This document shows positions 40,266 through 60,371 of a DNA stretch of 64,000 bases, piece by piece. A model generated the notes under the pieces. It had not been told where the DNA came from. It did no database searches and saw only the letters and a list, made by a program, of their open reading frames with translations. The stretch is from an uncultured cyanobacterium (GTDB lineage Bacteria > Cyanobacteriota > Cyanobacteriia > PCC-9006 > JAAUQQ01), in NCBI GenBank assembly GCA_963718615.1, contig OY970368.1, forward strand, positions 416,001 to 480,000, given 5' to 3'. The position numbers and the translations under genes are program-made. Each line of letters begins with the position of its first letter. Position 1 is the stretch's first letter.

Positions 40266-40576
40266 GGAATTTTTCTACCCTGTTTGCTGCGCTTCAATCG
40301 TCCAGATTCACGACAACTTGATTCTATAGAAAGAGTCTTGGGCGAAATAGTTTTATTTTGAGGAAAACAGGCTCGAAAATTGCCAGATCTTAATTAATTT
40401 GCATTTAGGTCTTTGATCTTTTCCAGGGACTTGGGCATACTGTTGGCACAGGAAGTCAGTAGCCCCATGGTCGGGGGCTGCAAGGCCCGGATACCCATGA
40501 ACAAGTATGGGTTGACCACTTGCTGACCACTTGCGGAGCAGGGTGCCCCATTAGGCTCCAGGCAAGGAAATGGTTT

Positions 40577-42013
40577 ATGAAAGACACCAGCTCGGCCCCG
40601 TGGAGATGTCGATGCCTCCCGCAATCGCTCCTCGAACCCGTGAGTGGATTGGATGGCTATTTGCAGCTTCGCGGCTCCACTGTGGAATGGTTTATCTACT
40701 TTCGGCAGGGGAAGATTGTCTATGCGACAAATTCCGTCGATCCACTAGAGCGGCTGGATCGTTATTTGCTAGGGCTGGGTCATGAGCTGCCCCGGCCTAT
40801 TCCTGAGATCAAAGTACTGGTTCGGTCCTACTTTGAGGATGCTACGGCCCCGAAGTCCCATCTCACGTCCGATTACCGAGCGATTGTGGAACTCGTTCGA
40901 CAAGGCATCTTGGATCGGCTCATGGCGAGCACCTTAGCCAGCAAAATGACGGCGGAAGTGTTTGAAAGCTATTTGCTGCTGCCGGAAGCGGAGTATGGCA
41001 TTCATCACGTCATCATGGCGAATTTGCCGAAGGTTTGCTCCCTCGAACCCAAGCATTTTGTGGAGCGGACTCAGACCCGGCTCAAACTTTGGCGTACGCT
41101 CTTGCCTCGGATTAGCTCGCCCTATCAGCGTCCTTACCTGGCGGGGGAAGCGATCGCCTACCAAAAACTCTCTCCCAAATCAGTCAGTGCGCTAAGCCGG
41201 TTTTTGATGGGGTCCAATTTTCGTCAGCTCGGCCTGCGGCTCAATCAGGATGAACTGGTATTGGCCAAACGTTTACTGCCCCTGATTAACAATGGCGTCG
41301 TGATCCTGCGGGATCCCGTCGCTCCCTTTGACCAGTTGCCCCGTTTTACGGTGCTGACGAAGCCGTCGACTGGTGCGATCGCCCCAAAACCCGAAACGAC
41401 TCCCGAAACGCTTTCTGAAGCAACTCCTGAAGCAACTCCTGAACCAGCGCTTGCCGAGCCAGTCCCCCCCGAACCTGCTCTCCCCGAACCTGCTCCCCAA
41501 GCAGCGCCAGATCTAGCCCCTGGGGTTGCTGTGCCCGAGGATCTCCCTGAAATCGCGGAGGTTACAGGGGGATTAATCAAACGTCCAACCACCTCGTTGG
41601 CCCCGCGACCGGTGCCGGTAACGGGTCACGAACTGGGCGATCGCGCCACCCTAGCCGATGAGATCCAAAAACATCTGGAGGACCAAGCGTTCTCGCTGGC
41701 CTTGATGGACGAGCCCGACGAAACCTTGCTTCGGCTCAGTTCGATGAACCCTGATTTTATTTTGCTAGACGCCACGACACCGGAGGTGGATGGTTACCGG
41801 GTTTGTTCGCTGATCCGCAAATCGCCGATGTTGAAGCATGTGCCCATTGTAATGGTGATGGAGCAGGAAGGATTGATGGAGCGGGCGAAGGCGAAACTGG
41901 CGGGGGCAACGGCCCATTTGCCCAAGTCTTTTTCCCAGGAAGAGCTTGCTCAGCTACTCTCCCGTCACCATGGCAAAACCAAGAAGGATGTGTTGATTTG
42001 CTTACTGCGCTAA
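40577..42013 (+). CDS. PatA-family response regulator (PATAN, Pro-rich linker, receiver)
   Basis: WFIYFRQGKIVYATNSVDPLERL, ISSPYQRPY, PDFILLD...DGYRVC. Confidence 0.85.
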   Translation: MKDTSSAPWRCRCLPQSLLEPVSGLDGYLQLRGSTVEWFIYFRQGKIVYATNSVDPLERLDRYLLGLGHELPRPIPEIKVLVRSYFEDATAPKSHLTSDYRAIVELVRQGILDRLMASTLASKMTAEVFESYLLLPEAEYGIHHVIMANLPKVCSLEPKHFVERTQTRLKLWRTLLPRISSPYQRPYLAGEAIAYQKLSPKSVSALSRFLMGSNFRQLGLRLNQDELVLAKRLLPLINNGVVILRDPVAPFDQLPRFTVLTKPSTGAIAPKPETTPETLSEATPEATPEPALAEPVPPEPALPEPAPQAAPDLAPGVAVPEDLPEIAEVTGGLIKRPTTSLAPRPVPVTGHELGDRATLADEIQKHLEDQAFSLALMDEPDETLLRLSSMNPDFILLDATTPEVDGYRVCSLIRKSPMLKHVPIVMVMEQEGLMERAKAKLAGATAHLPKSFSQEELAQLLSRHHGKTKKDVLICLLR

Positions 42014-44662: not shown

Positions 44663-44858
44663 TTGAGTCGATCTCTGGGTTTATTCTGTTGAGACTGGAG
44701 CCTAAGTGATCTAGTTCATCAAGTCTTGTATCACAAATGCCCTTGAGGCGTTAATTCTCTCCCCATTTCGGGAACAAATGATAGGTAGATCACGGGTCTA
44801 CGTTATCCCTGTTGCGGACCCATCGCCGTTGCATTGTGTGCAAGAGGTTCCCGATGTC

Positions 44859-46178
44859 ATGAGCAATTCTATTTCGATCGATCCTCATCAGTCTGTATCT
44901 GCTGCTCAATCCTTGCAATCTCTGCTAGGTCAAAAGGCAACAGGTGAATTTTTGATTACGGCGGAGCCTGCTGGCGCTGTAAACGCATCCAGCTCAGTCA
45001 ATACGGCTTGTCCCATCACTTGGCTGTTGTACTGCACCCAAGGACAGCTTAATTTTCTAACCAGTGCGGTGCGATCGCGATCGCGTCTGCAATACCTCCT
45101 TCAGCATTATGCGCCCAACCTGACCCTGCCCCAGTGGGAAACCTTTAGTTCAGATTACGATTACATGTGCTCGCTGTTAACAACCCAATCGTTGCCCCGG
45201 CAGCGGGTTCGCCAACTGCTTTCCATGTTTTCCGTAGAGGCGTTGGCCCAAATTCTGACGGCATCTAAGCTGACGATTACACCCTTGAGTGCCGAGGTTC
45301 AGCTTCAGCCGCTGCTGATTGCATTGAATTTTCAAGAGGTGCTTCCTCGGCTTCAGGATTTGCTGCAAGAATGGCGGACGTTGCATCCAGAGGTACCATC
45401 GCTCTTTCACTGCCCTAGGCTGAAACGAGTCGAAGCGTTGCATCAGCTTGTGGCGAAAAATCCAACACAACGATGGTTGCAACAATTGATTGCTCAGGTT
45501 GCTCCAGATCGTTGTTTCTATGAGCTTGCCGCTCGCGATCGCCAAAATGCGATTGAGCTAGCCAAAAAGGTTCAGCCCCTCATCCAGCGTGGTCTGGTTG
45601 AGCTAACACCCCCACCCCCAGCCGATGCCCAACAGGGCACGGTCTCAGCAAACATGCTGCCGACAACCAATTTATCTCCGCCTGAGACAAGTTCTGGGGC
45701 AAGTTCTGGGGCAAGTCCTGGGATCAGTTCTTTCGAAGGTTTTCATAAAATTTCCCTAAGTAACACCAGTCAAGCGCCTGCCAAGTCTTTCAAAATTGCC
45801 TGCGTAGATGACAGTCCTACCATCCTCAAAGAAATCGAAAATTGCTTAAGTGGGGGTGTCGATGAGTTTTCTATTTTCCCGATTGTAAATTCCGTACAGG
45901 CGCTGATGTGGTTGAGACGAATTCAGCCAGACCTAATCTTGATGGATGTGGGCATGCCCGGCGTGAACGGCTATGAACTCTGCCAGCTCATTCGCGGAAA
46001 TAAGCAGTTTGCCGACATTCCCATCATCATGGTGACGGGTAACACGAGTGCGCTCGATCGGGAAAAAGCAATGAAGGTTGGGGCGTCAGATTATCTGACT
46101 AAACCTTTTACGCAAACCGGCTTGCTAGAGATGGTTAAACGTCATTTGAATCTCTCAAATGTTGGCGTTGGCTGTTAG
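44859..46178 (+). CDS. PatA-family response regulator of taxis cluster
   Basis: PATAN-like N-terminus; IACVDDSP, LILMDVGMP, YLTKPF. Confidence 0.88.
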   Translation: MSNSISIDPHQSVSAAQSLQSLLGQKATGEFLITAEPAGAVNASSSVNTACPITWLLYCTQGQLNFLTSAVRSRSRLQYLLQHYAPNLTLPQWETFSSDYDYMCSLLTTQSLPRQRVRQLLSMFSVEALAQILTASKLTITPLSAEVQLQPLLIALNFQEVLPRLQDLLQEWRTLHPEVPSLFHCPRLKRVEALHQLVAKNPTQRWLQQLIAQVAPDRCFYELAARDRQNAIELAKKVQPLIQRGLVELTPPPPADAQQGTVSANMLPTTNLSPPETSSGASSGASPGISSFEGFHKISLSNTSQAPAKSFKIACVDDSPTILKEIENCLSGGVDEFSIFPIVNSVQALMWLRRIQPDLILMDVGMPGVNGYELCQLIRGNKQFADIPIIMVTGNTSALDREKAMKVGASDYLTKPFTQTGLLEMVKRHLNLSNVGVGC

Positions 46179-46222
46179 TTTAGCCTGCGATTGTTGATCA
46201 ATATTCATTCTGGAGAAAAACC

Positions 46223-46591
46223 ATGGCCACTGTTTTAGTCGTTGACGATACCCCTTCTGAACTTCAGCTCATGTGTCACCACTTGCGCCAAGCGGGATAT
46301 TTGGTGATTAGTGCCCAAAGCGCCGATGAAGGATTTACAAAAGCGCTGCAACAGAAACTGGACGCGATCGTGACCGATATTGCCATGCCCGGTAAAAGTG
46401 GGTTTGATCTTTGCCGCAATCTCAAGGCAGAACCCGCAACCCAAAATGTGCCGATTGTGATTTGCTCTAGCAAAAACCAGTCGATTGATAAACTTTGGGC
46501 CAAACGCCAAGGAGCAGCGGCTTATATTACGAAACCGTTTGATGGACAGAATCTCGTGGCTTCGGTGCAGTCTGTGCTAGGGCAAGGCTAA
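46223..46591 (+). CDS. CheY-like response regulator (PilH/PixH-type)
   Basis: VLVVDD, TDIAMP, DKLWAKRQGAAAYITKPF. Confidence 0.92.
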   Translation: MATVLVVDDTPSELQLMCHHLRQAGYLVISAQSADEGFTKALQQKLDAIVTDIAMPGKSGFDLCRNLKAEPATQNVPIVICSSKNQSIDKLWAKRQGAAAYITKPFDGQNLVASVQSVLGQG

Positions 46592-47187
46592 TGGACCAGG
46601 CAACTGTTACCCCCCGACAGGACAGTAATCGGCAAGGCAGTAATCGGCAAGGCAGTCGTCGCCAGGGCAATGCTCGACAGACCTATGTGAACTTCGAGAT
46701 TACGGCGGAGACACCGGCTCTGCTCTCAACGGTCTATGCCAAGGAAGTCGTGGATGTCCCATTTTCCCAAGTGACGGCACTGCCCAATATGCCCGCGCCG
46801 GTTCTGGGGCTGCTCAACCGCCGCAGCCGCGTTATTTGGTTGGTTGATCTGGCACAGTTGCTGGGGTTACCGCCTTTGATGCCCACGACCGAGGTCTATC
46901 GCGTCATTGTGCTCAGCGTTCATGGGGAGGATTCGCAGGCTTCAGCATCATTGTCGTCAGACCTACCCTTGAGTTTGATGGCGATCGCCGTCCCCACCAT
47001 TCGCGGCAGTGTCCGGATCTTGCCCGAGGCCATTCAGCCCCCCTCGGAACATTTATCACCCCTCTTACTGCCCTATCTCGATGGATGTTTATCGATCAAA
47101 CCTCCGCAACCTGAACTTCGCAATGAATTCACCCTCGTTCTCAACGCCAATCGAATCGCCACCTCACCGCTGCTGATTCAAGCTTGA
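46591..47187 (+). CDS. CheW-like protein
   Basis: [24 protein letters not shown]. Confidence 0.88.
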
Positions 47188-47218
47188 GTTCATTCTTGTC
47201 CTTTCCCAGAGAATCACC

Positions 47219-49546
47219 ATGCAGACCCAGGATCCCAATGTCCTTCCCTCTTCGCCTGCTGCCGCCCCTGACAATACTGGCTTTGTGAATTTAGGGGAGA
47301 TGGCTGGGGGCACCGTGCCAACCCCCTTGGCCCTAGACTCAACCCTAGATAGTGCTGGAGATCAAGCGGGTATTCGAGCGTTGCTGCGGGGCAATGCGCT
47401 GCAAAACCGCCTGCTGACCACCTTTTTGCCCACGGCGCTGGTTCCCCTCTTGCTCGCGAGTGCGCTGGGGTATGGCATCATTCGCAATCGCAACCAAGTC
47501 ACGGCCAAAGTTCAGCTCCAAAACCAATCGCTCTTGGCCAGTGAAGCCACCCAGGATTTTTTGAACGATGCCTTCAAAACTCCTGCGAGTGTGGCCAGCA
47601 ACCCCAGTATGCTCAACACCTTGCGCGCCAGTGCACAACAGGCGGAAGCGGAGAAGCTGCCGCAAAAGCCCCTAGAGCAACTTGAAGCAGACTTTGCCTC
47701 AACGCGATTGCTCAAGTTGGATCAAACCCTCAATACCACGCTGGATAAATTGGCAAAGGTGGGGGGATTGGCAGAGCTATTTATCACAGAACGCAACGGT
47801 TTGAACGTGGCCTATAGTCAGGCAACCTCTGACTTTGTCCAAAGTGATGAAGACTGGTGGAAAAACGGTAAGGCCCAGGGCCGCTGGATTAGTGACCCGG
47901 AGTTTGACGAATCTAGCCAATCGGTGAACGTCGATTTGGTGCAATCTGTAGTGGATGATCAGGGCCAGTTTTTAGGCGTGATCAAAGCGGGTTTGCCCTT
48001 CAATACCTTTAGCCGCATTGACGAATATCTCAACACTAAGAGTTTTAAAACCTCCGAGCAAATTCAGGTTCTGGATACTGGCGCAACTCAGTTGCTTAAA
48101 ACGGTGACGGTTCAGGGCGCTGGAACGGTGAAAGAGGTGACAGGGGGAGAGGCGATCGCCCAACTCTCCGCCGCCCTTTCCCAACTCAATCCCCAAACGG
48201 TGCCGGATACCACCCAGTTGCAATCCGAATGGGAACGGCAGTATGGCGTACAGGGCTTAACGTTAACAACGCTGGGTTCTGATGACTCGCAATCCGCAAA
48301 GCTCTCGGCAACATTTCGCCAGGGCGATCGCCAATATGCCATGACGCCCATTGTGGGAACAGACTGGGTGGCGATCGCCTCCCTCAAAAACGCAGATATC
48401 AACGCCGCTAGTTCGCAGTTGCTCTTGGTCTTTCTGGGAACAGCGGTAGTTCTGGGGGGCATTGCCGCCTTATTAACCCAGATTTTGGCGAAGCAACTCT
48501 CCTTGCCCCTCACCCAGGAAGTTCAGCGGCAGCAGGAGCAAACCGAAGCGATTCAAATGCAGTTGGTGGAGTTTCTCACCAGCGTTGAAGGCGCGGCCCA
48601 AGGGGACCTAACAGTTCACGCCGAGGTCAGCTCGGGGGATATGGGCACCGTGGCGGATTTCTTCAACCTAATTGTGGACAGTTTGCGGCAGATTCTGATT
48701 CAGGTGAAGCAATCGGCGGGTCAGGTGAACCAATCCGTTTCGGGGAATGAAGCCGCGATTCGCCAATTGGCCGACGAATCCCTCAAGCAAACGGAGGAAA
48801 TCTCGAATACGCTCCAGTCCGTGGAAGCCATGGCCCAATCGATTCAGATGGTGGCGAGTAGTGCTAACCGGGCGGCGGAGGTGTCGCGATCGGCAGCGAC
48901 TACCGCTTCAACCGGGGAAATCGCCATGGATAAAACCGTGGAAACGATTCTGAATCTGCGGGGTACGGTGGCGGAAACTGCGAAGAAGGTGAAACGCTTG
49001 GGCGAGTCGTCCCAACAGATTTCCAAGGTGGTCGCGCTGATTAACCAGATTGCGCTCAAGACCAACCTCCTCGCGGTCAACGCCAGTATTGAGGCGGCAC
49101 GGGCTGGGGAAGAGGGCGAAGGCTTCGCGGTAGTTGCGGAGGAAGTCGGGGCACTGGCGGAACAGTCGGCCACGGCCACCAAGGAAATTGAAAAAATTGT
49201 CGAAGGGATTCAAAAAGAAACCAACGAAGTGGTTGAAGCCATGGAGGTGGGAACGTCTCAGGTGGTTGAAGGCACCCGCTTAGTTGAGGATGCAAAAACC
49301 AGTTTGGTGGAAATCCTCAGCGTTTCCCGCCAAATTAATGAGCTCCTGCAATCGATTTCTGAGGCCACGGTGTCCCAGACCCAAACCTCCGACGAAGTGG
49401 CACAACTCATGCAAAAGATTACTCAGGTTTCGCGGCAAACGTCCGAATCTTCGCGGACGGTGTCGGACAATCTGCAGCAAACCGTGGAAATTGCCCAGGA
49501 TCTTGAAATCGCTGTGGGTCAGTTTAAGGTCGGTACTGAGATCTAA
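47219..49546 (+). CDS. Methyl-accepting chemotaxis protein with Cache sensor
   Basis: Two TM helices, [40 protein letters not shown]. Confidence 0.95.
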
Positions 49547-49580
49547 TTGGGGGGGTCTAATTTGGGAGGCCTAATTTGGC

Positions 49581-52481
49581 ATGGGACAAGCAACTAGACG
49601 GGAAATGGGGCGGGAAACCGAGCAGGAACTCCGCCTGCAATTTCTGGAAGAAGCCCAAGAATATCTCAATACGATCGAGCGCTTTTTGATGGGCTTGGCA
49701 GCACGCCCGTTGGACTCTGCCCAGGCGGATGGGGCGCTGCGGGCGGCTCACTCGATCAAGGGTGGGTCGGCGCTGATGGGGTTTCAAATCCTCAGTTCGT
49801 TGGCACACCATTTAGAGGATTTTCTCAAAATTCTCAAGGCTCGGCGTCAGACCATCCAGGTGGATGCGCCCCTAGAGAGCCTTTTGCTGGCGGCGTTGGA
49901 TCAGTTGCGCCAGGAGAGCGATCGCCAACGTGCCGGAAAAATCCTCAACGCCGAAGCCCTCAAACCTCAACTCCAGCCGATTTTCGGCGGACTGCGTCGC
50001 CGCCTGGGGACGCTGCAACCGGAGGACGAGAATGCGCTCCTGTCCGAGGCGAGCGGCACAGATGTGGCAGCAACGCTGTTTGAGCAGGAAGTGGGGGGAT
50101 TGCTGGATGATCTGGAGGCAAAGCTACAAACAGGCAATGAAGCGCTGATTGCTGCTGCCCTGACTGAACTGACCCAGGATCTGCAAGAGTTGGGCATCAT
50201 GCTCAAACTCCAGGCCTTTGTGCGGTTGTGTGAAGCCGTGGCAACGCAGGCTCAGAAGACACCAGAGCGGGGATTGGCGATCGCCCAAGCCGCCCTCAAA
50301 GCTTGGCGCAAGGCCCATGCCATGGTGTTGGTGGGGCAAGCGGAGAATATTACGAGTCAGTTGGAGGGCTTTGAGGCAAGGCCAAAGGAAAGGTCAGAGG
50401 CAAGGCCAAAGGAAAGGTTAGAGGCAAGGGCCATGGAAACCCCTGCCGACGCCCCACCGCCCAGCCCGCCAATTCGCGAAAAAACCGTTCGGGTGCCGTT
50501 GCGATTGCTGGATCAACTGAGTGATTTGTTTGGAGAATTACTCATTGAGCGCAATGCTTTGAATTTGCGTCTTGATCGCCTGCAAATCATGTCGGAGATT
50601 TTGCGCGATCGCGTCCAAGAGGTCGAACTATCCAACGATCAACTGCGACGCTTCTACGACCAAGTAGCAACGGAAACGGCCATTACCCTAAGCGGCTATC
50701 CGGTGCGCGGTCACCAGCTCCAAGGCCGCCAGCCAGGGCATCTGCAATGGGGCCAGGGCAGTGCCACCCTCGATCATCACTTCGATATCCTCGAAAAAGA
50801 CCAGTACAGCAATCTGCATCTGCTCTCTCAAGATCAGATGGAAAACGTCGTGCGGTTGCAGGAGGTCAGCACCGATATTGACCTGGGTCTCTCGGAAGCT
50901 CGCCAAGCGGCTCGGAAGGTCAACCAAACCATTAAACAGCTCCAAAACCGGGTTACCCAATCGCGGATGCGGCCCCTTTCGGAACTGGTGAGTCGGTTTC
51001 CCCGTACGATTCGGGAATTGTCGTTGCGCTATGGCAAAACCGTGGAACTAGAGGTGATGGGGGGCACGACGCTGGTGGATCGGGCGATCGTCGAAGCCTT
51101 GGCGGACCCGCTGCTGCATCTGCTGCGCAATGCCTTTGACCACGGCATCGAATCCCCTGAGGCCCGACGGGCAGCGGGTAAGCCAGAGACAGGACGCATT
51201 GAAATTCGCGCCGCCCACCGAGGTCGCCAAACGCTGATCCAAATCCAGGACGATGGGGCAGGGATCAATCTTGAGAAGGTCCGGGCAAGGGCGCTCAAAA
51301 TGGGCATTAGCGAAGCCCAACTGGCGCGATCCAGCGAAGCAGATTTGCTAGACCTGATTTTTGAACCAGGTTTTAGCACCGCTGACCAAGTCACGGATCT
51401 GTCGGGTCGTGGCGTGGGTATGGATGTGGTTCGCACCAATCTCAAGCAGATTCGAGGCGATGTTAAAGTCGAAACCCACGCCGGTCAAGGCACGACGTTT
51501 ACGCTTTCAGTCCCGCTGACTCTCTCGGTGGTGCGAGTGCTGTTGGTGGAGAGCAATGATTTGCTCATGGCCATGCCCACGGATGTGATTGCGGAGATGG
51601 TCCTGCCCCATCCCGAAATGCTGCTCAGTGCTGCGGGACAGACCCTGCTCAACTGGAATGATTTGATGGTGCCGGTGCTCAACTTGGGTGACTGGCTCCC
51701 GTTTAATTGCCCCAAACGAGCTCTGGAAAGTGAACTAGCAACTAAAATCAATACGCCAACCATTTTGCTGATCCATCGGGATAATAGCTGGGTAGGAATT
51801 CAGGTCGATCGCTTCCGGGCAGAACAGGAAGTTGCTATTCGCCCCATTGAGGGGCCGTTGGCATTGCCACCGGGCTGCACGGGCTCGACGATTTTGGGCA
51901 ATGGTCGCGTGGTGCCGATTATGGATCCCATACAACTCCTGGGCTGGATGACGGGCTGTGATCTTCATCCCGCAATGCCGGTGACTGCGAGGGGGAATTC
52001 AAGCTCCAATGGCAGTTCCAATGGCAGCTCCAATGGTAACGGCAATCTTGAGGCGATCGCCCCATTCCCATCCTCTACGACCTCCACGACCTCCACGGCC
52101 TCACCCCCCGTCGTTATGGTGATCGATGATTCGATCAATGTGCGCCGCTTCTTGGCCTTGACGCTCGAAAAGTCAGGCTATCGTGTGGTTCAGGCCCGCG
52201 ATGGTCAAGATGCCGTGGAAAAATTAGCCCAAGGGCTTACCGTTCACGGCATTGTCTGCGACTTAGAAATGCCCCGACTAGATGGCTATGGGGTCCTGAC
52301 CCACGTCCGTGAGCAATCCCAATTCAAGCGGTTGCCGGTCATTATGTTGACCTCTCGGAGCAGCGAGAAGCATCGGCAACTGGCGATGACCCTGGGGGCG
52401 ACGGACTATTTCTCAAAGCCCTATAACGAACAAGCACTACTCAAACGTCTGCGTTCTGCCCTGGAGACTGCAACTCGATGA
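49581..52481 (+). CDS. cheA: CheA-CheY hybrid histidine kinase
   Basis: RAAHSIKG Hpt, HLLRNAFDHGIE, GRGVGMDVV, CheW and receiver domains. Confidence 0.95.
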   Translation: MGQATRREMGRETEQELRLQFLEEAQEYLNTIERFLMGLAARPLDSAQADGALRAAHSIKGGSALMGFQILSSLAHHLEDFLKILKARRQTIQVDAPLESLLLAALDQLRQESDRQRAGKILNAEALKPQLQPIFGGLRRRLGTLQPEDENALLSEASGTDVAATLFEQEVGGLLDDLEAKLQTGNEALIAAALTELTQDLQELGIMLKLQAFVRLCEAVATQAQKTPERGLAIAQAALKAWRKAHAMVLVGQAENITSQLEGFEARPKERSEARPKERLEARAMETPADAPPPSPPIREKTVRVPLRLLDQLSDLFGELLIERNALNLRLDRLQIMSEILRDRVQEVELSNDQLRRFYDQVATETAITLSGYPVRGHQLQGRQPGHLQWGQGSATLDHHFDILEKDQYSNLHLLSQDQMENVVRLQEVSTDIDLGLSEARQAARKVNQTIKQLQNRVTQSRMRPLSELVSRFPRTIRELSLRYGKTVELEVMGGTTLVDRAIVEALADPLLHLLRNAFDHGIESPEARRAAGKPETGRIEIRAAHRGRQTLIQIQDDGAGINLEKVRARALKMGISEAQLARSSEADLLDLIFEPGFSTADQVTDLSGRGVGMDVVRTNLKQIRGDVKVETHAGQGTTFTLSVPLTLSVVRVLLVESNDLLMAMPTDVIAEMVLPHPEMLLSAAGQTLLNWNDLMVPVLNLGDWLPFNCPKRALESELATKINTPTILLIHRDNSWVGIQVDRFRAEQEVAIRPIEGPLALPPGCTGSTILGNGRVVPIMDPIQLLGWMTGCDLHPAMPVTARGNSSSNGSSNGSSNGNGNLEAIAPFPSSTTSTTSTASPPVVMVIDDSINVRRFLALTLEKSGYRVVQARDGQDAVEKLAQGLTVHGIVCDLEMPRLDGYGVLTHVREQSQFKRLPVIMLTSRSSEKHRQLAMTLGATDYFSKPYNEQALLKRLRSALETATR

Positions 52482-53017
52482 AAAATACCTTAGTTCGGAC
52501 TCGACGCCATCGCAAACGCGTTAAGGAAACGACAGTACAACTAATTACGTTTCAACTGCGCCAGGATTGGTTTGCGCTACCCATTACTGCCGTGGAGCGA
52601 GTGATTCCCCTGGAGGCGGTCTATGGCGAAGCCCATCAGTCGGGCATTGGCCTTACGGTTTACCAGGGTCAAGAACTGGTGGTCGTAGATGTGGGCCAGC
52701 GGCTTTTTGGGGAAGCGGGTCAAGCAGAGGGCACGTTGCTGCATCTGGATGCCTCCCAACAGGATGTTTTGGATCAGGTCCAGTTGCTGTTGATTCTCAA
52801 GGCTCCGACGGGGAAGCCCATTGGCATTCCAATTGATTCTCGTCCGGTGTTGAAACGGGTGGTAGCGGAGGCGATCGCCCCCATCCCCCACGAATACCAA
52901 ACCTCGGGGAAAATCCAATGTGTTAGTTCGCTCTCGGTCCAGGCGGCGGGCGAACCGCTGCTGTTTTTGCTGGATACGGAGCAGTTGTTTGAGGCGTTGG
53001 CGTTGAGCTTGGTCTGA
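52478..53017 (+). CDS. CheW-like protein
   Basis: LITFQLRQDWFALPI; last gene of taxis operon. Confidence 0.85.
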   Translation: MKNTLVRTRRHRKRVKETTVQLITFQLRQDWFALPITAVERVIPLEAVYGEAHQSGIGLTVYQGQELVVVDVGQRLFGEAGQAEGTLLHLDASQQDVLDQVQLLLILKAPTGKPIGIPIDSRPVLKRVVAEAIAPIPHEYQTSGKIQCVSSLSVQAAGEPLLFLLDTEQLFEALALSLV

Positions 53018-53105: not shown

Positions 53106-55232
53106 ATGGTGCTGACAACAATCCTGATTTTGGCTGCGAACCCAAAGGATACGCAGAAGCTGCGCCTGGACCAAGAAGTCCGGGATATTGAGGAGGCGCT
53201 GCGACGGGCTCCGGCGGGACGCGATCGCTTTCAAGTCATCCAGTACTGGGCCGTCCGGCTGGATGATTTACGGCGAGCTTTGTTGGAGCATCAACCGCAG
53301 ATTGTCCATTTTTCGGGGCATGGGGTGGGCGATCGCGGTCTAGTTTTCGAGGATGACCAAGGCAACAGCCAACTAGCCGACAGCCAAGGCATTGCTAATT
53401 TGCTGCGGCTGACGTCCAGCCTTGAATGTGTGGTCTTGAATGCCTGCTATTCCGAGGTTCAGGCTGAGGCGTTGGAAGCAGCCATATCGGGTTGTCTGAT
53501 TGGCATGAATCAGGCGGTGGGGGATGAGGCGGCGCGGAAGTTTGCCATCGGGTTTTATGATGGACTGTTTTATGGGGAGTCCTATGAGCGGGCGTTTGAG
53601 TATGGCTTGACGGCGTTGGAGCTGGAGCGGTTGCCCCAGGTGCCGGTTTTGACTTGGGGACGGCGATCGCTCAATTCTGCCGATGTTTCTCCTCGGCGCG
53701 TTTTCATCAGCTACAAGCGCAATGCGCAACCGGATGCGGCCTTGGCCTTGCAGTTGGTGGAGGCTCTCAGCCACAATCACCAGGTTTTTATCGATCAGCA
53801 GATGGCGGTGGGGGTGCGCTGGCGCGATCGCATCGCCCAAGAGATTCGCCAAGCGGATGCCATGGTGGTGTTGCTGTCTGAAATGTCGGTCCAGAGCGAA
53901 ATGGTGGAGCTGGAGGTGAAGCTGGCCCAGGAGGGAGCCGCCAATGTTGGAAAGCCCACGGTGCTGCCGGTGCGGGTGCAGTACCGAGAGCCGTTTCAAT
54001 ATCCCCTCAGTGTCTACCTGGACCCGATCAACTGGGCTTTCTGGGAGGGACCGGAGGACACCTCGCGCTTGCTGGGAGAATTGCAGGCGGCGCTGCGCGG
54101 TGGCGATTTGCCGGTGGCGACGGCTCAGGCGAAGCAGGCCCTGCTGCAACCAACTGCGACTTCCACAATTCCGAGCCCCACGCCTTCGGCCCAGCCCCAA
54201 ACCCAAGCGGCCTGCAACCCAGCGACGCTGGAGCAGCCGGAGGGGACGATGGATCCGGAGTCGGTGTTTTATGTGGAGCGTCCGGTGGATGCAGTGGCGT
54301 TGGAAACCATCGCTCAGTCAGGGGTGACGCTGACGATTAAGGGTCCGCGTCAGATGGGGAAAAGTTCGCTGCTGCTGCGCACCATTGAGGCGGCGCGGGA
54401 TGCGGGAAAACAGGTGGTGTTTCTAGATTTTCAGTTGTTTGACCAAGCGGCGTTGCAGGATGCGGATACGTTCTATCGGCAGTTTTGCTATTGCCTGACG
54501 GATGAGCTGAATTTGGACGACGAGGTAGAGCAATATTGGGCGCGACCTCTGGGGAATCCGCAGCGCTGTACCCGTTACGTCGAGCGCCATATCCTTAAGC
54601 AAATTCAGGAGCCGATTGTGCTGGCGATGGATGAGGTGGAGCGGATGTTTGATACGCCGTTTCGCAATGACTTTTTCAGTATGTTGCGCAGTTGGCATAA
54701 TCAGCGGGCGATGAAGCCGCTGTGGAAGCGGTTGGATTTGGCCTTGGTAACTTCGACGGAGCCCTATCAGCTAATTGCGGATTTAAATCAGTCGCCGTTT
54801 AATGTGGGGCAGGTGTTGCGGCTAGAGGATTTTTCGCCGGAGCAGGTGGTGGCGTTGAATCTGGCCCACGGGGAGCCCTTTGGGGCGGGGGAGGTGCAGA
54901 AGTTGATTGGGTTGTTGAATGGGCACCCCTATTTGACGCGGCGGGCGTTGTATTTGGTGGCGAGTGGACGGCTGGGGCCGGGGGAGCTGTTTGCCACGGC
55001 GGCGGATGAGCGGGGGCCGTTTGGCGATCATTTGCGCTATCACCTGTTCCGCATGTATGACCAACGGGAGCTGGTGGAAGGTTTTTTGGAGGTGTTGAAA
55101 CGGCGGGACTGCGAAAATGAGCGGGTGTTTTTTCGGCTGAATGGGGCGGGGATTGTGATGCGCCAGGGTCATGATGTGGTTCCAAGGTGTCAGTTATATG
55201 CCGAATTTTTTGGAGACCATTTACGACAATAA
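53106..55232 (+). CDS. CHAT (caspase-like) + TIR + STAND/AAA_35-type NTPase
   Basis: IVHFSGHG and LNACYS; VFISYKR...SEMVELEV; GPRQMGKSS, LAMDEVE, SPFNVG, GHPYLT. Confidence 0.88.
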   Translation: MVLTTILILAANPKDTQKLRLDQEVRDIEEALRRAPAGRDRFQVIQYWAVRLDDLRRALLEHQPQIVHFSGHGVGDRGLVFEDDQGNSQLADSQGIANLLRLTSSLECVVLNACYSEVQAEALEAAISGCLIGMNQAVGDEAARKFAIGFYDGLFYGESYERAFEYGLTALELERLPQVPVLTWGRRSLNSADVSPRRVFISYKRNAQPDAALALQLVEALSHNHQVFIDQQMAVGVRWRDRIAQEIRQADAMVVLLSEMSVQSEMVELEVKLAQEGAANVGKPTVLPVRVQYREPFQYPLSVYLDPINWAFWEGPEDTSRLLGELQAALRGGDLPVATAQAKQALLQPTATSTIPSPTPSAQPQTQAACNPATLEQPEGTMDPESVFYVERPVDAVALETIAQSGVTLTIKGPRQMGKSSLLLRTIEAARDAGKQVVFLDFQLFDQAALQDADTFYRQFCYCLTDELNLDDEVEQYWARPLGNPQRCTRYVERHILKQIQEPIVLAMDEVERMFDTPFRNDFFSMLRSWHNQRAMKPLWKRLDLALVTSTEPYQLIADLNQSPFNVGQVLRLEDFSPEQVVALNLAHGEPFGAGEVQKLIGLLNGHPYLTRRALYLVASGRLGPGELFATAADERGPFGDHLRYHLFRMYDQRELVEGFLEVLKRRDCENERVFFRLNGAGIVMRQGHDVVPRCQLYAEFFGDHLRQ

Positions 55233-55243
55233 CCGTTATGCCC

Positions 55244-55271
55244 GTAGGGACGAACCGCCGTTCGTCCTTGC
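55244..55271 (+). repeat. GTAG-type REP-like palindrome
   Basis: GTAGGGACGAAC-CGCC-GTTCGTCCTTGC hairpin. Confidence 0.65.
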
Positions 55272-55322
55272 CAATACCCAAGCAGCAGCCAGATCGAGAT
55301 TAACCCAGGGATTAACAGCACC

Positions 55323-58300
55323 ATGAGTTCATCGATTTACACCACAGGCGGAACGGTCCAGGCGGGGGGCGGCATCTATCTGCCCCGCAAGGCGGATGAT
55401 GAGCTGTTGCAGCTCTGCCGGGAGGGGCAGTTTGCCTATGTGTTGACGCCGAGACAGATGGGAAAGTCGAGTTTGATGGTACGGACGGCGGAGCGGCTGG
55501 GGGAAGAAGGCGTTACGTCGGTGATTATTGACCTGACCAAGATTGGCACGGAGGTGACGGCGGAGCAATGGTATTTGGGGCTGCTGACGGAGATTGATGA
55601 TGCGTTGATGTTGGAGACGGACATTTTTGACTGGTGGGCGGAGCGGCAGCATTTGGGTGTGACGCAGCGGCTGACGCGATTTTTTGAGGAGGTGCTGCTG
55701 GCGGAGGTGGCTGGGCAACTCGTGGTGTTTGTGGATGAGATTGACACGACGCTGAGTTTGGATTTTACGGACGACTTTTTTATTGCGATTCGCTATTTCT
55801 ATGTGGGGCGGGCGAAGGCGGAGGCGTTGGGTCGGCTGTCGTTTGTGTTGATCGGGGTGGCGACACCGGGGGATTTGATTCGGGATCCGCAGCGGACGCC
55901 GTTTAATGTGGGGCGGCGGGTGGAGTTGACGGATTTTACGGCGGCGGAGGCGTTGCCTTTTGCCCAGGGGTTGGGGCCGCAGGGTGAGGAGGTTTTGGGC
56001 TGGGTGATGGAGTGGAGTGGGGGGCACCCGTATTTGACGCAGCGGTTGTGTCAGGGGGTGGCGGAGGCGGGGAGTGGTGTGGACGAAGGCTCTGTGAATC
56101 AGTTGGTGGAAAAACTATTTCTGGAGGGGGGAGAGCGGAACGACAATAATTTGTTGTTTGTGCGGGATATGTTGACCCAGCGGACGCCGAATCGGAATGA
56201 GTCGGTGTATGAGGTGTTGATGACCTATCGGGATGTGTGGTTGGATAGGCAACCCGTGCTGGATGAGGAGCAGTCGCTGGTGAAGTCGCATCTGAAGCTG
56301 GCGGGGATTGTGCGGCGGGAGGCGGATCGGCAAGGGGCGCTGCGGGTGAGCAATGGGGTTTACCGGGCGGTGTTTGACGAGGCTTGGGTGAAGGAACATC
56401 TCCCCACAAATTGGGTCAAGCGCTTGCAAAGGGCGCGGGCCGCTATTGCTGCATTGCTTGCGGTGACGTTGGTGGCGGTGCCGTTGGGGGTGTTGGCGGA
56501 GTATCGGCGGCGGGAGGCGGTGGAGCAGCGGGCGGAGGCGCAGAAACAAACGATTTTGGCTCAGGCTAATTCTTCGCGGGCTTTTTTGTTGGCGAATCAA
56601 CCCTTGGAAGGCATGGTGGCGGCGGTGGCGGCTTGGCAGAAGGTGGAGGAAGAAGATTTGAGTACAGCAACGATGGCAGCACCAGCAAGGACTGCCCTAA
56701 TGGGAGGAGCATACTATGAGCCAGGATTTAATCTGGGTCCTGTACAAGCAAAGCGGTTCTCTAAGCGTAGTTTTCGAGAAAAAAACTTTCTAGAAGGCCA
56801 TGGCGATAGTGTCATAAGTGTGGCCTTTAGCCCCGATGGAGAGACGATTGCATCCGCCAGCTTGGATCGCACGGTCAAACTCTGGGATCGGCAGGGAAAG
56901 CTACTCAACACCCTAGAAGGCCATGGCGATAGTGTCATAAGTGTGGCCTTTAGCCCCGATGGAGAGACGATTGCATCCGCCAGCGATGATCGCACGGTCA
57001 AACTCTGGGATCGGCAGGGAAAGCTGCTCAACACCCTAGAAGGCCATGGCTCTAGTGTCTGGAGTGTGGCCTTTAGCCCCGATGGAGAGACGATTGCATC
57101 CGCCAGCTTGGATCGCACGGTCAAACTCTGGGATCGGCAGGGAAAGCTGCTCAACACCCTAGAAGGCCATGGCAATTGGGTCATAAGTGTGGCCTTTAGC
57201 CCCGATGGAGAGACGATTGCATCCGCCAGCTCAGATCGCACGGTCAAACTCTGGGATCGGCAGGGAAAGCTGCTCAACACCCTAGAAGGCCATGGCAATT
57301 GGGTCATAAGTGTGGCCTTTAGCCCCGATGGAGAGACGATTGCATCCGCCAGCGATGATCGCACGGTCAAACTCTGGGATCGGCAGGGAAAGCTGCTCAA
57401 CACCCTAGAAGGCCATGGCAATTGGGTCAGAAGTGTGGCCTTTAGCCCCGATGGAGAGACGATTGCATCCGCCAGCTTGGATCGCACGGTCAAACTCTGG
57501 GATCGGCAGGGAAAGCTGCTCAACACCCTAGAAGGTCATGGCAATTGGGTCATAAGTGTGGCCTTTAGCCCCGATGGAGAGACGATTGCATCCGCCAGCT
57601 TGGATCGCACGGTCAAACTCTGGGATCGGCAGGGAAAGCTGCTCAACACCCTAGAAGGCCATGGCAATTGGGTCATAAGTGTGGCCTTTAGCCCCGATGG
57701 AGAGACGATTGCATCCGCCAGCTTGGATCGCACGGTCAAACTCTGGGATCGGCAGGGAAAGCTGCTCAACACCCTAGAAGGCCATGGCGATAGTGTCATA
57801 AGTGTGGCCTTTAGCCCCGATGGAGAGACGATTGCATCCGCCAGCGATGATCGCACGGTCAAACTCTGGGATCGGCAGGGAAAGCTGCTCAACACCCTAG
57901 AAGGCCATGGCGATAGTGTCATAAGTGTGGCCTTTAGCCCCGATGGAGAGACGATTGCATCCGCCAGCGATGATCGCACGGTCAAACTCTGGGATCGGCA
58001 GGGAAAGCTACTCAACACCCTAGAAGGCCATGGCAATTGGGTCATAAGTGTGGCCTTTAGCCCCGATGGAGAGACGATTGCATCCGCCAGCTTGGATCGC
58101 ACGGTCAAACTCTGGGATCGGCAGGGAAAGCTGCTCAACACCCTAGAAGGCCATGGCGATAGTGTCATAAGTGTGGCCTTTAGCCCCGATGGAGAGACGA
58201 TTGCATCCGCCAGCGATGATCGCACGGTCAAACTCTGGGATCGGCAGGGAAAGCTGCTCAACACCCTAGAAGGCCATGGCGATAGTGTCATAAGTGTGGC

Positions 58301-58601
58301 CTTTAGCCCCGATGGAGAGACGATTGCATCCGCCAGCGATGATCGCACGGTCAAACTCTGGGATCGGCAGGGAAAGCTGCTCAACACCCTAGAAGGCCAT
58401 GGCTCTAGTGTCATAAGTGTGGCCTTTAGCCCCGATGGAGAAACGATTGCATCCGCCAGCTCAGATCGCACGGTCAAACTCTGGGATCGCGACCCGCAGA
58501 GGCTACTGGCTTGGCACTGCAACTGGCTCCGCGACTATTTGCTCCACAACCCCGATGGGCAAAAGGCAAAGGCAGACGGCGTTTGTCGGGGCAGGCTCTA
58601 G
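55323..58601 (+). CDS. STAND/AAA_35-type NTPase + TM helix + 14 WD40 repeats
   Basis: TPRQMGKSS, VFVDEID, TPFNVG, GHPYLTQ; AAIAALLAVTLVAVPLGVLA; GH..V.SVAFSPDG..IASAS.D.TVKLWD. Confidence 0.92.
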   Translation: MSSSIYTTGGTVQAGGGIYLPRKADDELLQLCREGQFAYVLTPRQMGKSSLMVRTAERLGEEGVTSVIIDLTKIGTEVTAEQWYLGLLTEIDDALMLETDIFDWWAERQHLGVTQRLTRFFEEVLLAEVAGQLVVFVDEIDTTLSLDFTDDFFIAIRYFYVGRAKAEALGRLSFVLIGVATPGDLIRDPQRTPFNVGRRVELTDFTAAEALPFAQGLGPQGEEVLGWVMEWSGGHPYLTQRLCQGVAEAGSGVDEGSVNQLVEKLFLEGGERNDNNLLFVRDMLTQRTPNRNESVYEVLMTYRDVWLDRQPVLDEEQSLVKSHLKLAGIVRREADRQGALRVSNGVYRAVFDEAWVKEHLPTNWVKRLQRARAAIAALLAVTLVAVPLGVLAEYRRREAVEQRAEAQKQTILAQANSSRAFLLANQPLEGMVAAVAAWQKVEEEDLSTATMAAPARTALMGGAYYEPGFNLGPVQAKRFSKRSFREKNFLEGHGDSVISVAFSPDGETIASASLDRTVKLWDRQGKLLNTLEGHGDSVISVAFSPDGETIASASDDRTVKLWDRQGKLLNTLEGHGSSVWSVAFSPDGETIASASLDRTVKLWDRQGKLLNTLEGHGNWVISVAFSPDGETIASASSDRTVKLWDRQGKLLNTLEGHGNWVISVAFSPDGETIASASDDRTVKLWDRQGKLLNTLEGHGNWVRSVAFSPDGETIASASLDRTVKLWDRQGKLLNTLEGHGNWVISVAFSPDGETIASASLDRTVKLWDRQGKLLNTLEGHGNWVISVAFSPDGETIASASLDRTVKLWDRQGKLLNTLEGHGDSVISVAFSPDGETIASASDDRTVKLWDRQGKLLNTLEGHGDSVISVAFSPDGETIASASDDRTVKLWDRQGKLLNTLEGHGNWVISVAFSPDGETIASASLDRTVKLWDRQGKLLNTLEGHGDSVISVAFSPDGETIASASDDRTVKLWDRQGKLLNTLEGHGDSVISVAFSPDGETIASASDDRTVKLWDRQGKLLNTLEGHGSSVISVAFSPDGETIASASSDRTVKLWDRDPQRLLAWHCNWLRDYLLHNPDGQKAKADGVCRGRL
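56790..58490 (+). repeat. Intragenic tandem array of 14 x 123-bp near-identical WD40 units
   Basis: CTAGAAGGCCATGGC recurs every 123 bp from 56790 to 58389; last unit truncated. Confidence 0.97.
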
Positions 58602-58627: not shown

Positions 58628-58921
58628 CTATTGATCAAATAATCGCTCTACATCTCGGGAGCCGTGCAAAATTCGAACAATCTCGATGCAGTTGGCTTGC
58701 ACAAAATAAAAAACAATATACGGCTTCACCGGAAAACTCCTCAGTTCTGCCAACAACTCGTCCCGAAGCTTCCCCATTTCCGGAAACTGCGCCAACATTG
58801 GCAAATGATCCAAGAGCTTCGCGATCGCCCGATCCGCTCCAATCTCATCCTGCTCAGCCAAATAAACCCAAATATCTTCCAAATCCTGCTCAGCTTCCCG
58901 AGAGAGTTGATAACGGTTCAT
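58628..58921 (-). CDS. parE: ParE/RelE-family toxin
   Basis: LSREAEQDLEDIWVY, FPEMGKLRDEL, YIVFY, IVRILHGSRD. Confidence 0.9.
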   Translation of the reverse strand: MNRYQLSREAEQDLEDIWVYLAEQDEIGADRAIAKLLDHLPMLAQFPEMGKLRDELLAELRSFPVKPYIVFYFVQANCIEIVRILHGSRDVERLFDQ

Positions 58922-59223
58922 GCTTGCTCTTGCCGAGCCCGACCTCGCTCCCGAATCTTTGCCGCCAAATCTGGCAACGTCTCATTCGTATACGCCGTAA
59001 ACTGACCTGCTCTAAGCTGCTCAACCCCAAGCATCAGTGCCTGACGCAACTCCGTCAACTTTGCTTGCTCCTCCTCCGACAAAGGTTTAGCCCGTAGCTT
59101 TTCTGTCAGAGCCCTGCGCTCCTCATCTGTTAACGCTAGGATAATCTGCGCCAGAGAATCCACAAGCTGGGTGTTTACAGGAGGGCCTCCACTGCTTGCC
59201 TGGGTCGCCGTGGCTTGAGTCAT
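58918..59223 (-). CDS. Probable cognate antitoxin (ParD-like C-terminus)
   Basis: ATGA overlap with parE; KLTELRQALMLGVEQLRAG. Confidence 0.7.
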   Translation of the reverse strand: MTQATATQASSGGPPVNTQLVDSLAQIILALTDEERRALTEKLRAKPLSEEEQAKLTELRQALMLGVEQLRAGQFTAYTNETLPDLAAKIRERGRARQEQA

Positions 59224-59328
59224 TGCTAATCCATCCTCAACGCTATCTTTAATTGTAGCTTAGTCGGCTAGCAGCCCACTCACCGGACGTAACAATACCC
59301 TGAGAGCTTCCGCCAATGGGTACGCTAG

Positions 59329-59360
59329 GGCAACACACAGGGTATGGCACAGACCGCTAA
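59329..59360 (+). pseudogene. Orphan 3' end of xisI
   Basis: 29/32 identical to 60340-60371 including stop codon. Confidence 0.75.
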
Positions 59361-59381
59361 TTCCACCATGACATCTGCCAG

Positions 59382-59453
59382 TGCAACTATTTACGCCACA
59401 ACCCCACCGGCCAACAAGCCCGCGCCCGAGACGTCTGCCAGGGCAGGCTCTAA
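59382..59453 (+). pseudogene. Orphan C-terminal tail of a paralogous STAND-WD40 gene
   Basis: CNYLRHNPTGQQARARDVCQGRL* aligns without gaps to RDYLLHNPDGQKAKADGVCRGRL* (58530-58601). Confidence 0.8.
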
Positions 59454-59583
59454 CCCCACCCCTCACCTCAGCCCCAGACACCGGGGGTTTTGGTCTCATC
59501 CTGAAATCTGCATCTCTCCCCCACCAAACTCCCGGCGTTTCAGCCTCCAACTATGAATTCAGGGTTTGCATTACACTAAAACC

Positions 59584-60000
59584 ATGCCAGCCAAAGACCT
59601 CTATCACGACGCTGTCAAATCAGCCCTGATTCAAGACGGGTGGACCATCACCGATGATCCACTCACCCTTAAGATTGGCGTTCGAAACCTAGCCATTGAC
59701 CTAGGAGCCGAGAAACTCCTCGCAGCAGAACGTGGGCCAGACAAAATCGCAGTCGAAGTCAAAAGTTTCATTGGTCCTTCCCTCCTCTCCGAACTAGAAA
59801 AAGCCTGGGGACAGTTTTTCCTCTACGCCCGAACCCTTGCACGGCAAGAACCTGAACGCAACCTCTATCTAGCCGTAAACAATACAACCTTTGAAACCCT
59901 CTTTCAGGAAGAAGCCGGTCAGATCCTCCTTCAAGAGCCAGGATTTCGCTTACTCGTTGTTGATGTCGATCGCCAGGAAATAGTTCTATGGAAACCCTAG
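59584..60000 (+). CDS. xisH: XisH family protein
   Basis: MPAKDLYHDAVKSALIQDGWTITDDPL, IDLGAEK, IAVEVKSF. Confidence 0.93.
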   Translation: MPAKDLYHDAVKSALIQDGWTITDDPLTLKIGVRNLAIDLGAEKLLAAERGPDKIAVEVKSFIGPSLLSELEKAWGQFFLYARTLARQEPERNLYLAVNNTTFETLFQEEAGQILLQEPGFRLLVVDVDRQEIVLWKP

Positions 60001-60371
60001 CCCAACCTCACAATTCCCCCAACACCCCAACGCCCCAAACCCTTGAGCAATGGTGTCAGGAAATCGAAAAGATTTTGCAATATTATGCTGATCTTCCCTA
60101 TCGCTACGGAGAGGTTACAACGAGCGTTGTTGTTAGTGGCGATCGAAAAAACTTTCTCCTCATCAACGAAGGCTGGGAAGGCAATCGGCGAGTCTACGGC
60201 ACCGTCGTCCATGCAGAAATCCGTAACGGAAAAATCTGGATTCATCACGACGGCACAGAGGAAGGCATCACCGAAGACTTAGTCGCAGCAGGTGTCCCAA
60301 AAGATAACATTGTCCTAGCCTTTCATCCCCCCAGCGTGCGGCAACACACAGGATATGGCGCAGACAGCTAA
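59988..60371 (+). CDS. xisI: XisI family protein
   Basis: GKIWIHHDGTEEGI..DLVAAGVPKDNIVLAFHPP. Confidence 0.93.
   Translation: METLAQPHNSPNTPTPQTLEQWCQEIEKILQYYADLPYRYGEVTTSVVVSGDRKNFLLINEGWEGNRRVYGTVVHAEIRNGKIWIHHDGTEEGITEDLVAAGVPKDNIVLAFHPPSVRQHTGYGADS

Follow-up and report, generated by a model that had tools for sequence, protein, structure and literature searches.

The stretch of DNA analysed here (the window) comprises 64,000 nucleotides from an uncultured cyanobacterium, positions 416,001 to 480,000 of the forward strand of contig OY970368.1 (GenBank assembly GCA_963718615.1). Its gene content and its nearest homologs mark the window as cyanobacterial. Two neighbouring genes, A and B, lie between positions 53106 and 58601 of the window. 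As far as sequence and structural models tell, they are a split STAND receptor of the Npun_R6612 (WRAP) type, in which a chain of effector, nucleoside triphosphatase (NTPase) and sensor is divided over two genes. The pair is real and conserved, but the system has been described since 2014, and the copy here is a further member of it. The features of the locus are as follows.

53106-55232, plus strand: gene A, the executor, CHAT-TIR-AAA_35 (A clade), 708 residues, with no sensor or membrane segment
53109-53660, plus strand: CHAT (caspase-fold) protease domain of A, with His72 at 53319-53321 and Cys114 at 53445-53447
53691-54107, plus strand: TIR domain of A, with Glu270 at 53913-53915
54219-55229, plus strand: A-clade STAND NTPase, comprising a P-loop domain, a GHP helical domain and, at the C-terminus, a further domain
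54342-54368 and 54630-54635, plus strand: Walker A and Walker B of the A NTPase; Gln562 precedes the PFN motif
55244-55271, no strand assigned: intergenic GTAG-led palindrome that folds into a stable hairpin, not required by the model proposed below
55323-58601, plus strand: gene B, the sensor, AAA_35 (B clade)-membrane helix-helical stalk-14 WD40 blades-Cys tail, 1092 residues
55323-56417, plus strand: B-clade STAND NTPase, with Walker A at 55446-55472; Arg191, at 55893-55895, precedes the PFN motif
56439-56498, plus strand: predicted single transmembrane helix of B (residues 373-392), from hydropathy, with an inferred N-in, C-out orientation
56493-56732, plus strand: helical stalk of B, made up of three long helices that join the membrane helix to the propellers in the structural model
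56790-58484, plus strand: 14 WD40 repeats of 123 bp (base pairs), 96% identical, forming two 7-bladed propellers by homology to 2YMU
58518-58586, plus strand: C-terminal Cys pair of B (Cys1066 and Cys1088), a candidate disulfide and the sole cysteines past the NTPase

The two open reading frames point in the same direction and are separated by 90 bp. A starts with the ATG at 53106, and its database copy is likewise 708 residues long. The motifs PRQMGKSS, the DE of Walker B, PFNVG and GHPYLT were found in both products. The two NTPase domains shared 31% identity across 251 residues (E 5e-31), and both matched Pfam AAA_35, A with E 3e-109 and B with E 6e-32. An earlier reading of the window from its letters (the sequence-only reading) had proposed co-oriented neighbours with homologous NTPase modules, and these results bear it out. 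No further AAA_35 gene was found in the window besides A and B, no NCBIfam family matched above its cut-off, and neither A nor the isolated B NTPase gave an NB-ARC or NACHT match in Pfam. In the AlphaFold model of A (mean predicted local distance difference test score, pLDDT, 89), residues 375-704 matched the archaeal ATPases 2QEN (Z 19.9, root-mean-square deviation (rmsd) 4.2, 305 aligned) and 2FNA (Z 19.7), the nearest solved structures to this NTPase, as well as CED-4 (Z 17.2). We take 2QEN and 2FNA to be MNS-type STANDs. The P-loop, GxP helical and winged-helix domains expected of a STAND protein were all found in A, and B was placed by its homology to A and by a full-length match to Apaf-1. 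A and B are STAND-type proteins of Pfam AAA_35, neither NB-ARC nor NACHT.

Conservation of the pair was assessed in GTDB genomes scanned with an alignment of the B NTPase only. The best 80 of at least 598 confirmed relatives were used, a sample that is biased toward close relatives. They comprised 51 cyanobacterial loci, 16 from Chloroflexota, 6 from Acidobacteriota, 2 each from Myxococcota and Bacteroidota/Rhodothermota, and 3 unassigned. An A-clade NTPase was present in 74 of the 80 loci. It lay directly upstream of B (within 500 bp) in 62 of them, further upstream in 8, in divergent orientation in 3 and downstream in 1. Three of the six loci without A end at contig ends (L069, L075, L034). 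A tree of 101 selected NTPase domains parted A from B by a long branch into two deep clades. All 39 plasmid records with an A-type best match, near-duplicate strains included, also held a B-type match, and in 25 of these the genes were adjacent in the order A then B when best-match coordinates were read by eye. Plasmid alpha of PCC 7120 also bears a distant pair. The A and B distances were correlated (Spearman 0.88 over 70 pairs; none of 999 permutations as high). The A profile matched 5,754 clusters at 50% identity with E of at most 1e-30, some of which may be B domains. No phage-encoded copy was found among 50,697 GenBank phage records, and no conserved third gene or protease substrate stood beside the pair across the 80 loci.

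Several observations pulled the other way. Within the DNA covered, B had no A nearby in L049, L055 and L080 (truncated B), some plasmids held A and B 8-43 kb apart, and six plasmid records held B only. A correlation of A and B distances is also expected from operon inheritance alone.

Natural fusions linked the two clades more directly. A and B were joined in one chain, in either order, in 11 of 150 A-clade representatives and in 3 matches from another search. One of them, P0278, carries trypsin, TIR, A, B and a membrane helix within a single protein. In the sequences, such fusion points to a direct partnership, short of proof, although the in-order A-B fusions could be gene-calling read-throughs. 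Tandem two-NTPase matches were rejected as A+B fusions, since the tree resolved them mostly as B-B duplications. Four sensorless fusions of the form B-(CHAT)-TIR-A had no membrane helix (P0184, P0189, P0236 and P0242), and in P0184 the protease His was replaced by Tyr. In Chloroflexota, three loci (L052, L062, L064) placed a kinase-TIR-A gene beside a tandem B-B-membrane helix-TPR-PD40 protein; P0172 is a triple-B CHASE2 protein, and plasmid L088 holds three B genes with one A. These tandem and multiple arrangements suggest B-B contacts and an uneven stoichiometry. With 74 of 80 loci, two co-occurring deep clades and the fusions, the expectation that the genes are conserved as a pair was confirmed, and the split sensor/executor design is well supported. 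We consider a direct A/B complex likely.

The NTPase modules of the two partners differed at one position. The Walker A Lys and Walker B Asp-Glu were retained in 69-70 of 70 proteins of both clades, and GHP in 66-70 of 70. The position just before the PFN motif was Arg in 69 of 70 B proteins (Arg191) and Gln in 69 of 70 A proteins (Gln562). AAA+ proteins carry an arginine finger at the site preceding the PFN-equivalent position. By its position, Arg191 of B is likely the arginine-finger site, with a putative role.

The same data bear on a guard or brake arrangement, in which a resting B would hold A inactive until a ligand, or damage to B, frees it. Logic of this kind has been proposed for some plant NLR pairs. 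It would suit the tight linkage of the genes (a gap of at most 30 bp in 45 of 70 A-then-B loci) and an A protein that is a complete enzyme-plus-oligomeriser without an autoinhibitory repeat domain, and the sensorless fusions P0184, P0189 and P0236 would fit a built-in brake. However, both NTPases retain Walker A and B, the tandem B-B proteins beside a separate A in the Chloroflexota loci suit a B platform that nucleates A, and there are A genes with no B anywhere close. We regard a brake as distinctly unlikely.

The N-terminal half of A carries two effector domains. Pfam matched CHAT with E 2.5e-10 and TIR_2 with E 2.8e-19. His72, which belongs to the HG motif, aligned with its counterpart in SAVED-CHAT (PDB 8TL0), as did Cys114, and in the AlphaFold model the CHAT domain superimposed on that structure with Z 21.3 and rmsd 2.6 over 181 aligned residues. 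The modelled TIR domain matched the SPARTA TIR 8IFL (Z 18.1, rmsd 2.2, 132 aligned) and also the SARM1 TIR. His72, Cys114 and Glu270 were invariant in all 106 aligned homologs (106 of the 120 listed matches were aligned). A His-Cys dyad on a caspase fold is present, with proteolysis as the predicted activity, and a catalytic Glu sits on the predicted TIR fold, for which NAD+ cleavage would be expected. A strict TIR motif was counted in 39 of 59 proteins, a figure lowered by the narrow pattern, as the Glu was still visible by eye in 19 of the 20 misses. The best 19-residue window of A had a hydropathy of only 1.2, leaving no hydrophobic segment. The NTPase forms the C-terminal end in 141 of 150 A-clade representatives, which are thus sensorless. 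Two effector domains with apparently intact catalytic residues and no sensor are what the sequence-only reading had ascribed to this gene.

Effectors varied across the family. Of the 70 A proteins from the sampled loci, 66 contained TIR, frequently combined with CHAT; kinase, trypsin, ParA-like, EAD7 or bDLD1 domains were its other companions. Among 72 more diverse A representatives, TIR occurred in 43, CHAT in 7 and kinase in 7, the other effectors including trypsin, PNP, EAD1/7 and bDLD1. A further gene starting with the same CHAT subtype was seen near the pair in five loci, L018 (17261-18394), L009, L026, L032 and L042.

The sensor part of B is a recently amplified WD40 array. Its 14 repeats of 41 residues had a mean DNA identity of 96%, and the amino acids varied only at repeat positions 6, 7, 9 and 25. 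Synonymous changes were rare and confined to 3 codons, while non-synonymous changes fell in 4. The best structural and sequence match of the propeller was 2YMU (E 9e-253, 70% identity). In fungal recognition propellers, codons 7, 9, 25 and 27 are under positive selection on the top face and positions 8 and 26 are conserved, according to the available text of Paoletti 2007 (PMC1805685). Val8 and Asp26 in B place its repeats in the same register. Eight of the 12 variable DNA columns fell in codons 7, 9 and 25 of these four (P 2e-7, columns within a codon being non-independent). Among the 23 homologs with at least 6 parsed repeats, 14 were repetitive, and in these the most variable positions were 25, 9, 7, 27 and 6. 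Alternative codons differed by 2-3 bases, lacked intermediates and turned up again in other combinations, a pattern suggestive of exchange between repeats. Prokaryotic WD40 proteins with highly repetitive blades have been described before as having variable hotspots, in the consulted part of PMC5587647. Many contigs (L004, L007, L012, L019, L021, L030 and others) end or hold N gaps within the B WD40 array. Assemblies therefore tend to be interrupted or collapsed at the array, and an array that looks short in a draft genome may be artefactual.

Between the NTPase and the stalk of B lies a hydrophobic segment at residues 373-392 with a hydropathy of 2.55. The helix, here a hydropathy prediction, and the 14 WD40 repeats agree with what had been read from the sequence; the near-identity of the repeats and the tail Cys pair did not feature in that reading. 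A hydrophobic helix followed the B NTPase in 74 of 78 homologs, 20 residues long and uncharged, and in 59 of the 74 the flank N-terminal to it had the more positive net charge. The modules that follow the helix varied. WD40 was the commonest among 41 tails scanned with Pfam; others carried FGE-sulfatase, TPR, DUF2610, kinase, histidine kinase or PAS/GAF domains. In 4 of the 41 tails the WD40 slot was replaced by CHASE2 between membrane helices, and a search with a CHASE2 homolog confirmed clusters combining AAA_35 and CHASE2. CHASE2 is an extracellular domain, as stated in the part of PMC5587647 at hand. On a Nostoc plasmid (L082), the WD40 slot is followed by a peptidoglycan amidase. This locus (L082:4476-11368) encodes Trypco1, trypsin-TIR-A and B-membrane helix-WD40-amidase near a ParDE pair and recombinases. 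Cysteines were sparse after the helix, at 0.15 per 100 residues against 0.63 in the NTPase, the tail pair excepted, and 26 of 43 complete WD40 versions had, like B, exactly two Cys past the NTPase, both in the tail. We hold it probable that the propellers and stalk of B are outside the cytoplasmic membrane and the NTPase inside.

A helix that merely tethers B, with propellers facing the cytoplasm and binding phage proteins as Avs and Apaf-1 do, would be an alternative. The overall layout of B matches Apaf-1, Arg residues flank the helix on both sides, and characterised STAND sensors bind intracellular phage proteins, according to the portion of PMC13581612 available. An uncharged 20-residue helix in nearly all homologs, the charge bias around it, CHASE2 and amidase domains that act outside and follow the same helix in relatives, and the depletion of Cys past the helix speak against such a tether, and we think it unlikely. 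An outside location nevertheless has its own difficulties. The AlphaFold confidence at the helix was below 50. When Lys and Arg alone were counted, the N side was favoured in 37 of 74 homologs, with 21 ties and 16 reversed, and three Arg follow the helix of B on the presumed outer side. Two helix-less B-WD40 paralogs in L088 retain the tail Cys pair, so the pair is no proof of export. The earlier proposal that the propellers lie across the membrane has thus gained indirect support from the charge bias and the CHASE2 and amidase relatives, while the helix-less paralogs and the low confidence of the helix count against it.

The codon composition of the pair changed within B. The frequency of G at third codon positions (G3) was 0.55-0.63 and that of C (C3) 0.10-0.12 in both NTPase regions (53106-56570), whereas the stalk and WD40 part of B (56571-58601) had G3 0.25 and C3 0.34; the values for the upstream chemotaxis genes were 0.35 and 0.27. 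The contrast between the NTPases and the stalk/WD40 part suggests a mosaic gene with an exchanged sensor. The palindrome between A and B (55244-55271) had a hairpin stability z of -3.6 and occurred as a single copy in the window, with one exact pattern match elsewhere, in locus L025 at 6458-6481. It resembles what we take to be a repetitive extragenic palindromic (REP) element. A scan of the pair for promoters and terminators gave only chance-level results.

Taken together, these features suggest the following mechanism. B would reside in the cytoplasmic membrane, the NTPase facing the cell interior and the stalk and both propellers lying on the outside. The ligand of the four variable positions of each blade would be a macromolecule, probably a protein, that is foreign or altered, and repeat shuffling would shift the specificity. 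Ligand binding would cluster or re-orient B and switch its NTPase. Contacts between the two NTPases could then let active B draw A into a mixed oligomer, to which B would contribute an arginine absent from A. Clustering would turn on the TIR domain of A, through NAD+ cleavage or a signal nucleotide, together with the CHAT protease, and the activated A would arrest or kill the cell, sparing neighbouring cells. To this whole mechanism, in which B is a membrane receptor that seeds a mixed oligomer with A and thereby activates TIR and CHAT, we assign a probability of about one half. An immune or conflict output, taken by itself, seems somewhat favoured.

The genomic surroundings and the distant relatives of the pair made the output less certain. 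A complete PatA-CheY-CheW-MCP-CheA-CheW cluster occupies 44778-53017 on the same strand, 88 bp upstream of A, and a second PatA-like gene lies at 40520-42013. Downstream, at 58628-60371, a ParE toxin and a probable antitoxin on the minus strand are followed by an XisH/XisI pair. Elsewhere in the window, the minus strand encodes a 477-residue HEAT/PBS-lyase repeat protein at 9462-10895. The window is no defence island, the genes next to the pair being the chemotaxis-like cluster, ParDE and XisHI. PADLOC 2.0 returned only domain-level CHAT, TIR, PDC-S01 and repeat matches on it. In the literature searched, which excluded subscription journals, neither an experimental test of the pair nor any account of its topology was found. 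Among more remote relatives, A can bear common signalling domains (HTH, LuxR, kinase, cyclase or receiver, with HTH or LuxR on distant plasmid members), as can B (histidine kinase, PAS/GAF or kinase). The lack of a defence-island setting and these signalling domains count against an immune receptor.

They would better suit general transmembrane signalling, in which B responds to a cue from the envelope or the environment and A gives a regulatory, non-lethal output, for example in development or motility. CHASE2 tails on B relatives and the adjacent same-strand chemotaxis genes would agree with such a role. However, homologs of MCP, CheA, CheW and PatA accompanied the pair in none of the 80 loci, and a link to the upstream cluster was rejected on this ground; ParDE and XisHI, not recurrent across the 80 loci, were likewise rejected as conserved neighbours. 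TIR with its catalytic Glu is a near-constant effector in the close family, and the turnover of repeats at codons of the ligand face is in keeping with an arms race. We consider a signalling role rather unlikely, but the strongest of the three rivals.

If the reading of B as an outside sensor and A as a split executor holds, the pair would be a STAND receptor signalling across the membrane, a bacterial parallel of sensor/helper NLR pairs. Only tentatively would we extend it to a widespread class of immune receptors that sense an attacker (an injecting phage, a predator or a rival) from outside before entry, fire TIR and a caspase-like protease from an inflammasome-like mixed ring, and interchange modules through a constant A/B interface. 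Outside sensing, modular swapping of sensors and effectors, the Arg/Gln asymmetry of the NTPases and blade variation at the codons of fungal receptors are what the present analysis adds, as predictions. The family occurs in Cyanobacteria, Chloroflexota, Acidobacteriota, Myxococcota and Bacteroidota/Rhodothermota. The variable blade positions, the Arg191/Gln562 asymmetry and the natural fusions offer direct experimental handles, and the copy here would be a convenient model because both of its effectors look intact.

The pair shares parts with several known systems. SAVED-CHAT (8TL0), solved as an activated filament, is the closest solved relative of the A protease, with 29% identity and the same His and Cys; activation there proceeds via a SAVED domain and not via a STAND partner. 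Avs and bacterial NACHT anti-phage STANDs combine a STAND switch, a repeat sensor and a TIR, nuclease or protease effector, but as single three-part chains rather than two genes. Periplasmic signals are the presumed input of the membrane regions that some bacterial NACHT proteins contain, in the available text of bioRxiv 2022.07.19.500537. No Avs profile matched with PADLOC 2.0, whose library predates Avs7-21. The nSTAND2 systems (Kaur 2021, PMC8195603, available in part) are also two adjacent STAND genes with a predicted hetero-multimer. One partner there is inactive and carries GT4 or HEPN, whereas here both Walker sets are kept and the attached domains are TIR/CHAT or membrane helix-WD40. 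An inactive partner of the nSTAND2 kind was rejected, given the Walker motifs kept in both clades and no GT4 or HEPN. Fungal HNWD proteins (HET-D, HET-E) have near-identical WD40 repeats that vary at 7, 9 and 25, as here, and at 27, as in the homologs, judging from the passages of PMC1805685 consulted. They are single HET-NACHT-WD40 chains, whereas the pair here encodes its effector separately and a membrane helix precedes the sensor.

Plant paired NLRs and mammalian NAIP/NLRC4 likewise use separate sensor and executor STANDs, often encoded by linked genes. The output of both is clustered TIR or caspase activity. The pair here differs in its AAA_35 modules, its tandem genes, an executor without a repeat domain, and a sensor with WD40 and a membrane helix but no effector. 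Because the modules are AAA_35 rather than NB-ARC or NACHT, 'paired NLR' is only an analogy. The comparison with paired plant NLRs made in the sequence-only reading holds for the division into sensor and executor and fails for the NLR class. Effector, NTPase and repeat sensor, which an NLR has within one chain, are split over two genes here, though P0278 is a single-chain relative.

The closest counterpart has already been described. WRAP (PDB 2YMU) is the C-terminal domain of the STAND ATPase Npun_R6612 of Nostoc punctiforme (PMC6805158, PMC9218822; both available in part). In the passages available, Pereira and Lupas (PMC9218822) state that its gene is coupled to a second STAND with an N-terminal TIR, in an operon conserved in cyanobacteria, and that a caspase domain is an optional addition to the TIR-STAND partner; they give innate immunity as the suggested role, citing Dunin-Horkawicz, Kopec and Lupas 2014. 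The novelty implied by the sequence-only reading therefore does not stand, as both the operon of STAND-WD40 with (caspase)-TIR-STAND and its immunity role were proposed in 2014 (PMC9218822). The same passages on Npun_R6612 are silent on a membrane helix, an outside location, CHASE2/FGS/TPR swaps, non-cyanobacterial members, fusions and the Arg/Gln asymmetry, some of which the 2014 paper may cover. The pair may also correspond to a family that PMC8195603 names, Npun2340/2341 of Leipe 2004; the pair was absent from the first 30 of 44 places in the supplement of PMC8195603.

The likeness to Npun_R6612 as described in those passages extends to the STAND ATPase, the 14 recently amplified near-identical WD40 blades, the adjacent TIR-STAND and the optional caspase-fold domain. 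In the window, B ends in a 14-blade WRAP-related WD40 array with near-identical blades, and an adjacent STAND carries TIR and CHAT; the blade sequence and the host differ. The same pair is found in Nostoc CHAB 5824 (L006), which PMC9218822 names for a close WRAP homolog in the portion available, including Fig. 2. It encodes TIR-A followed by B, with a propeller that matches 2YMU at 1351 bits, and its B and A proteins are 52% and 60% identical to the window copies. The 2YMU match, together with the description in PMC9218822, thus places the pair within the described Npun_R6612/TIR-STAND system.

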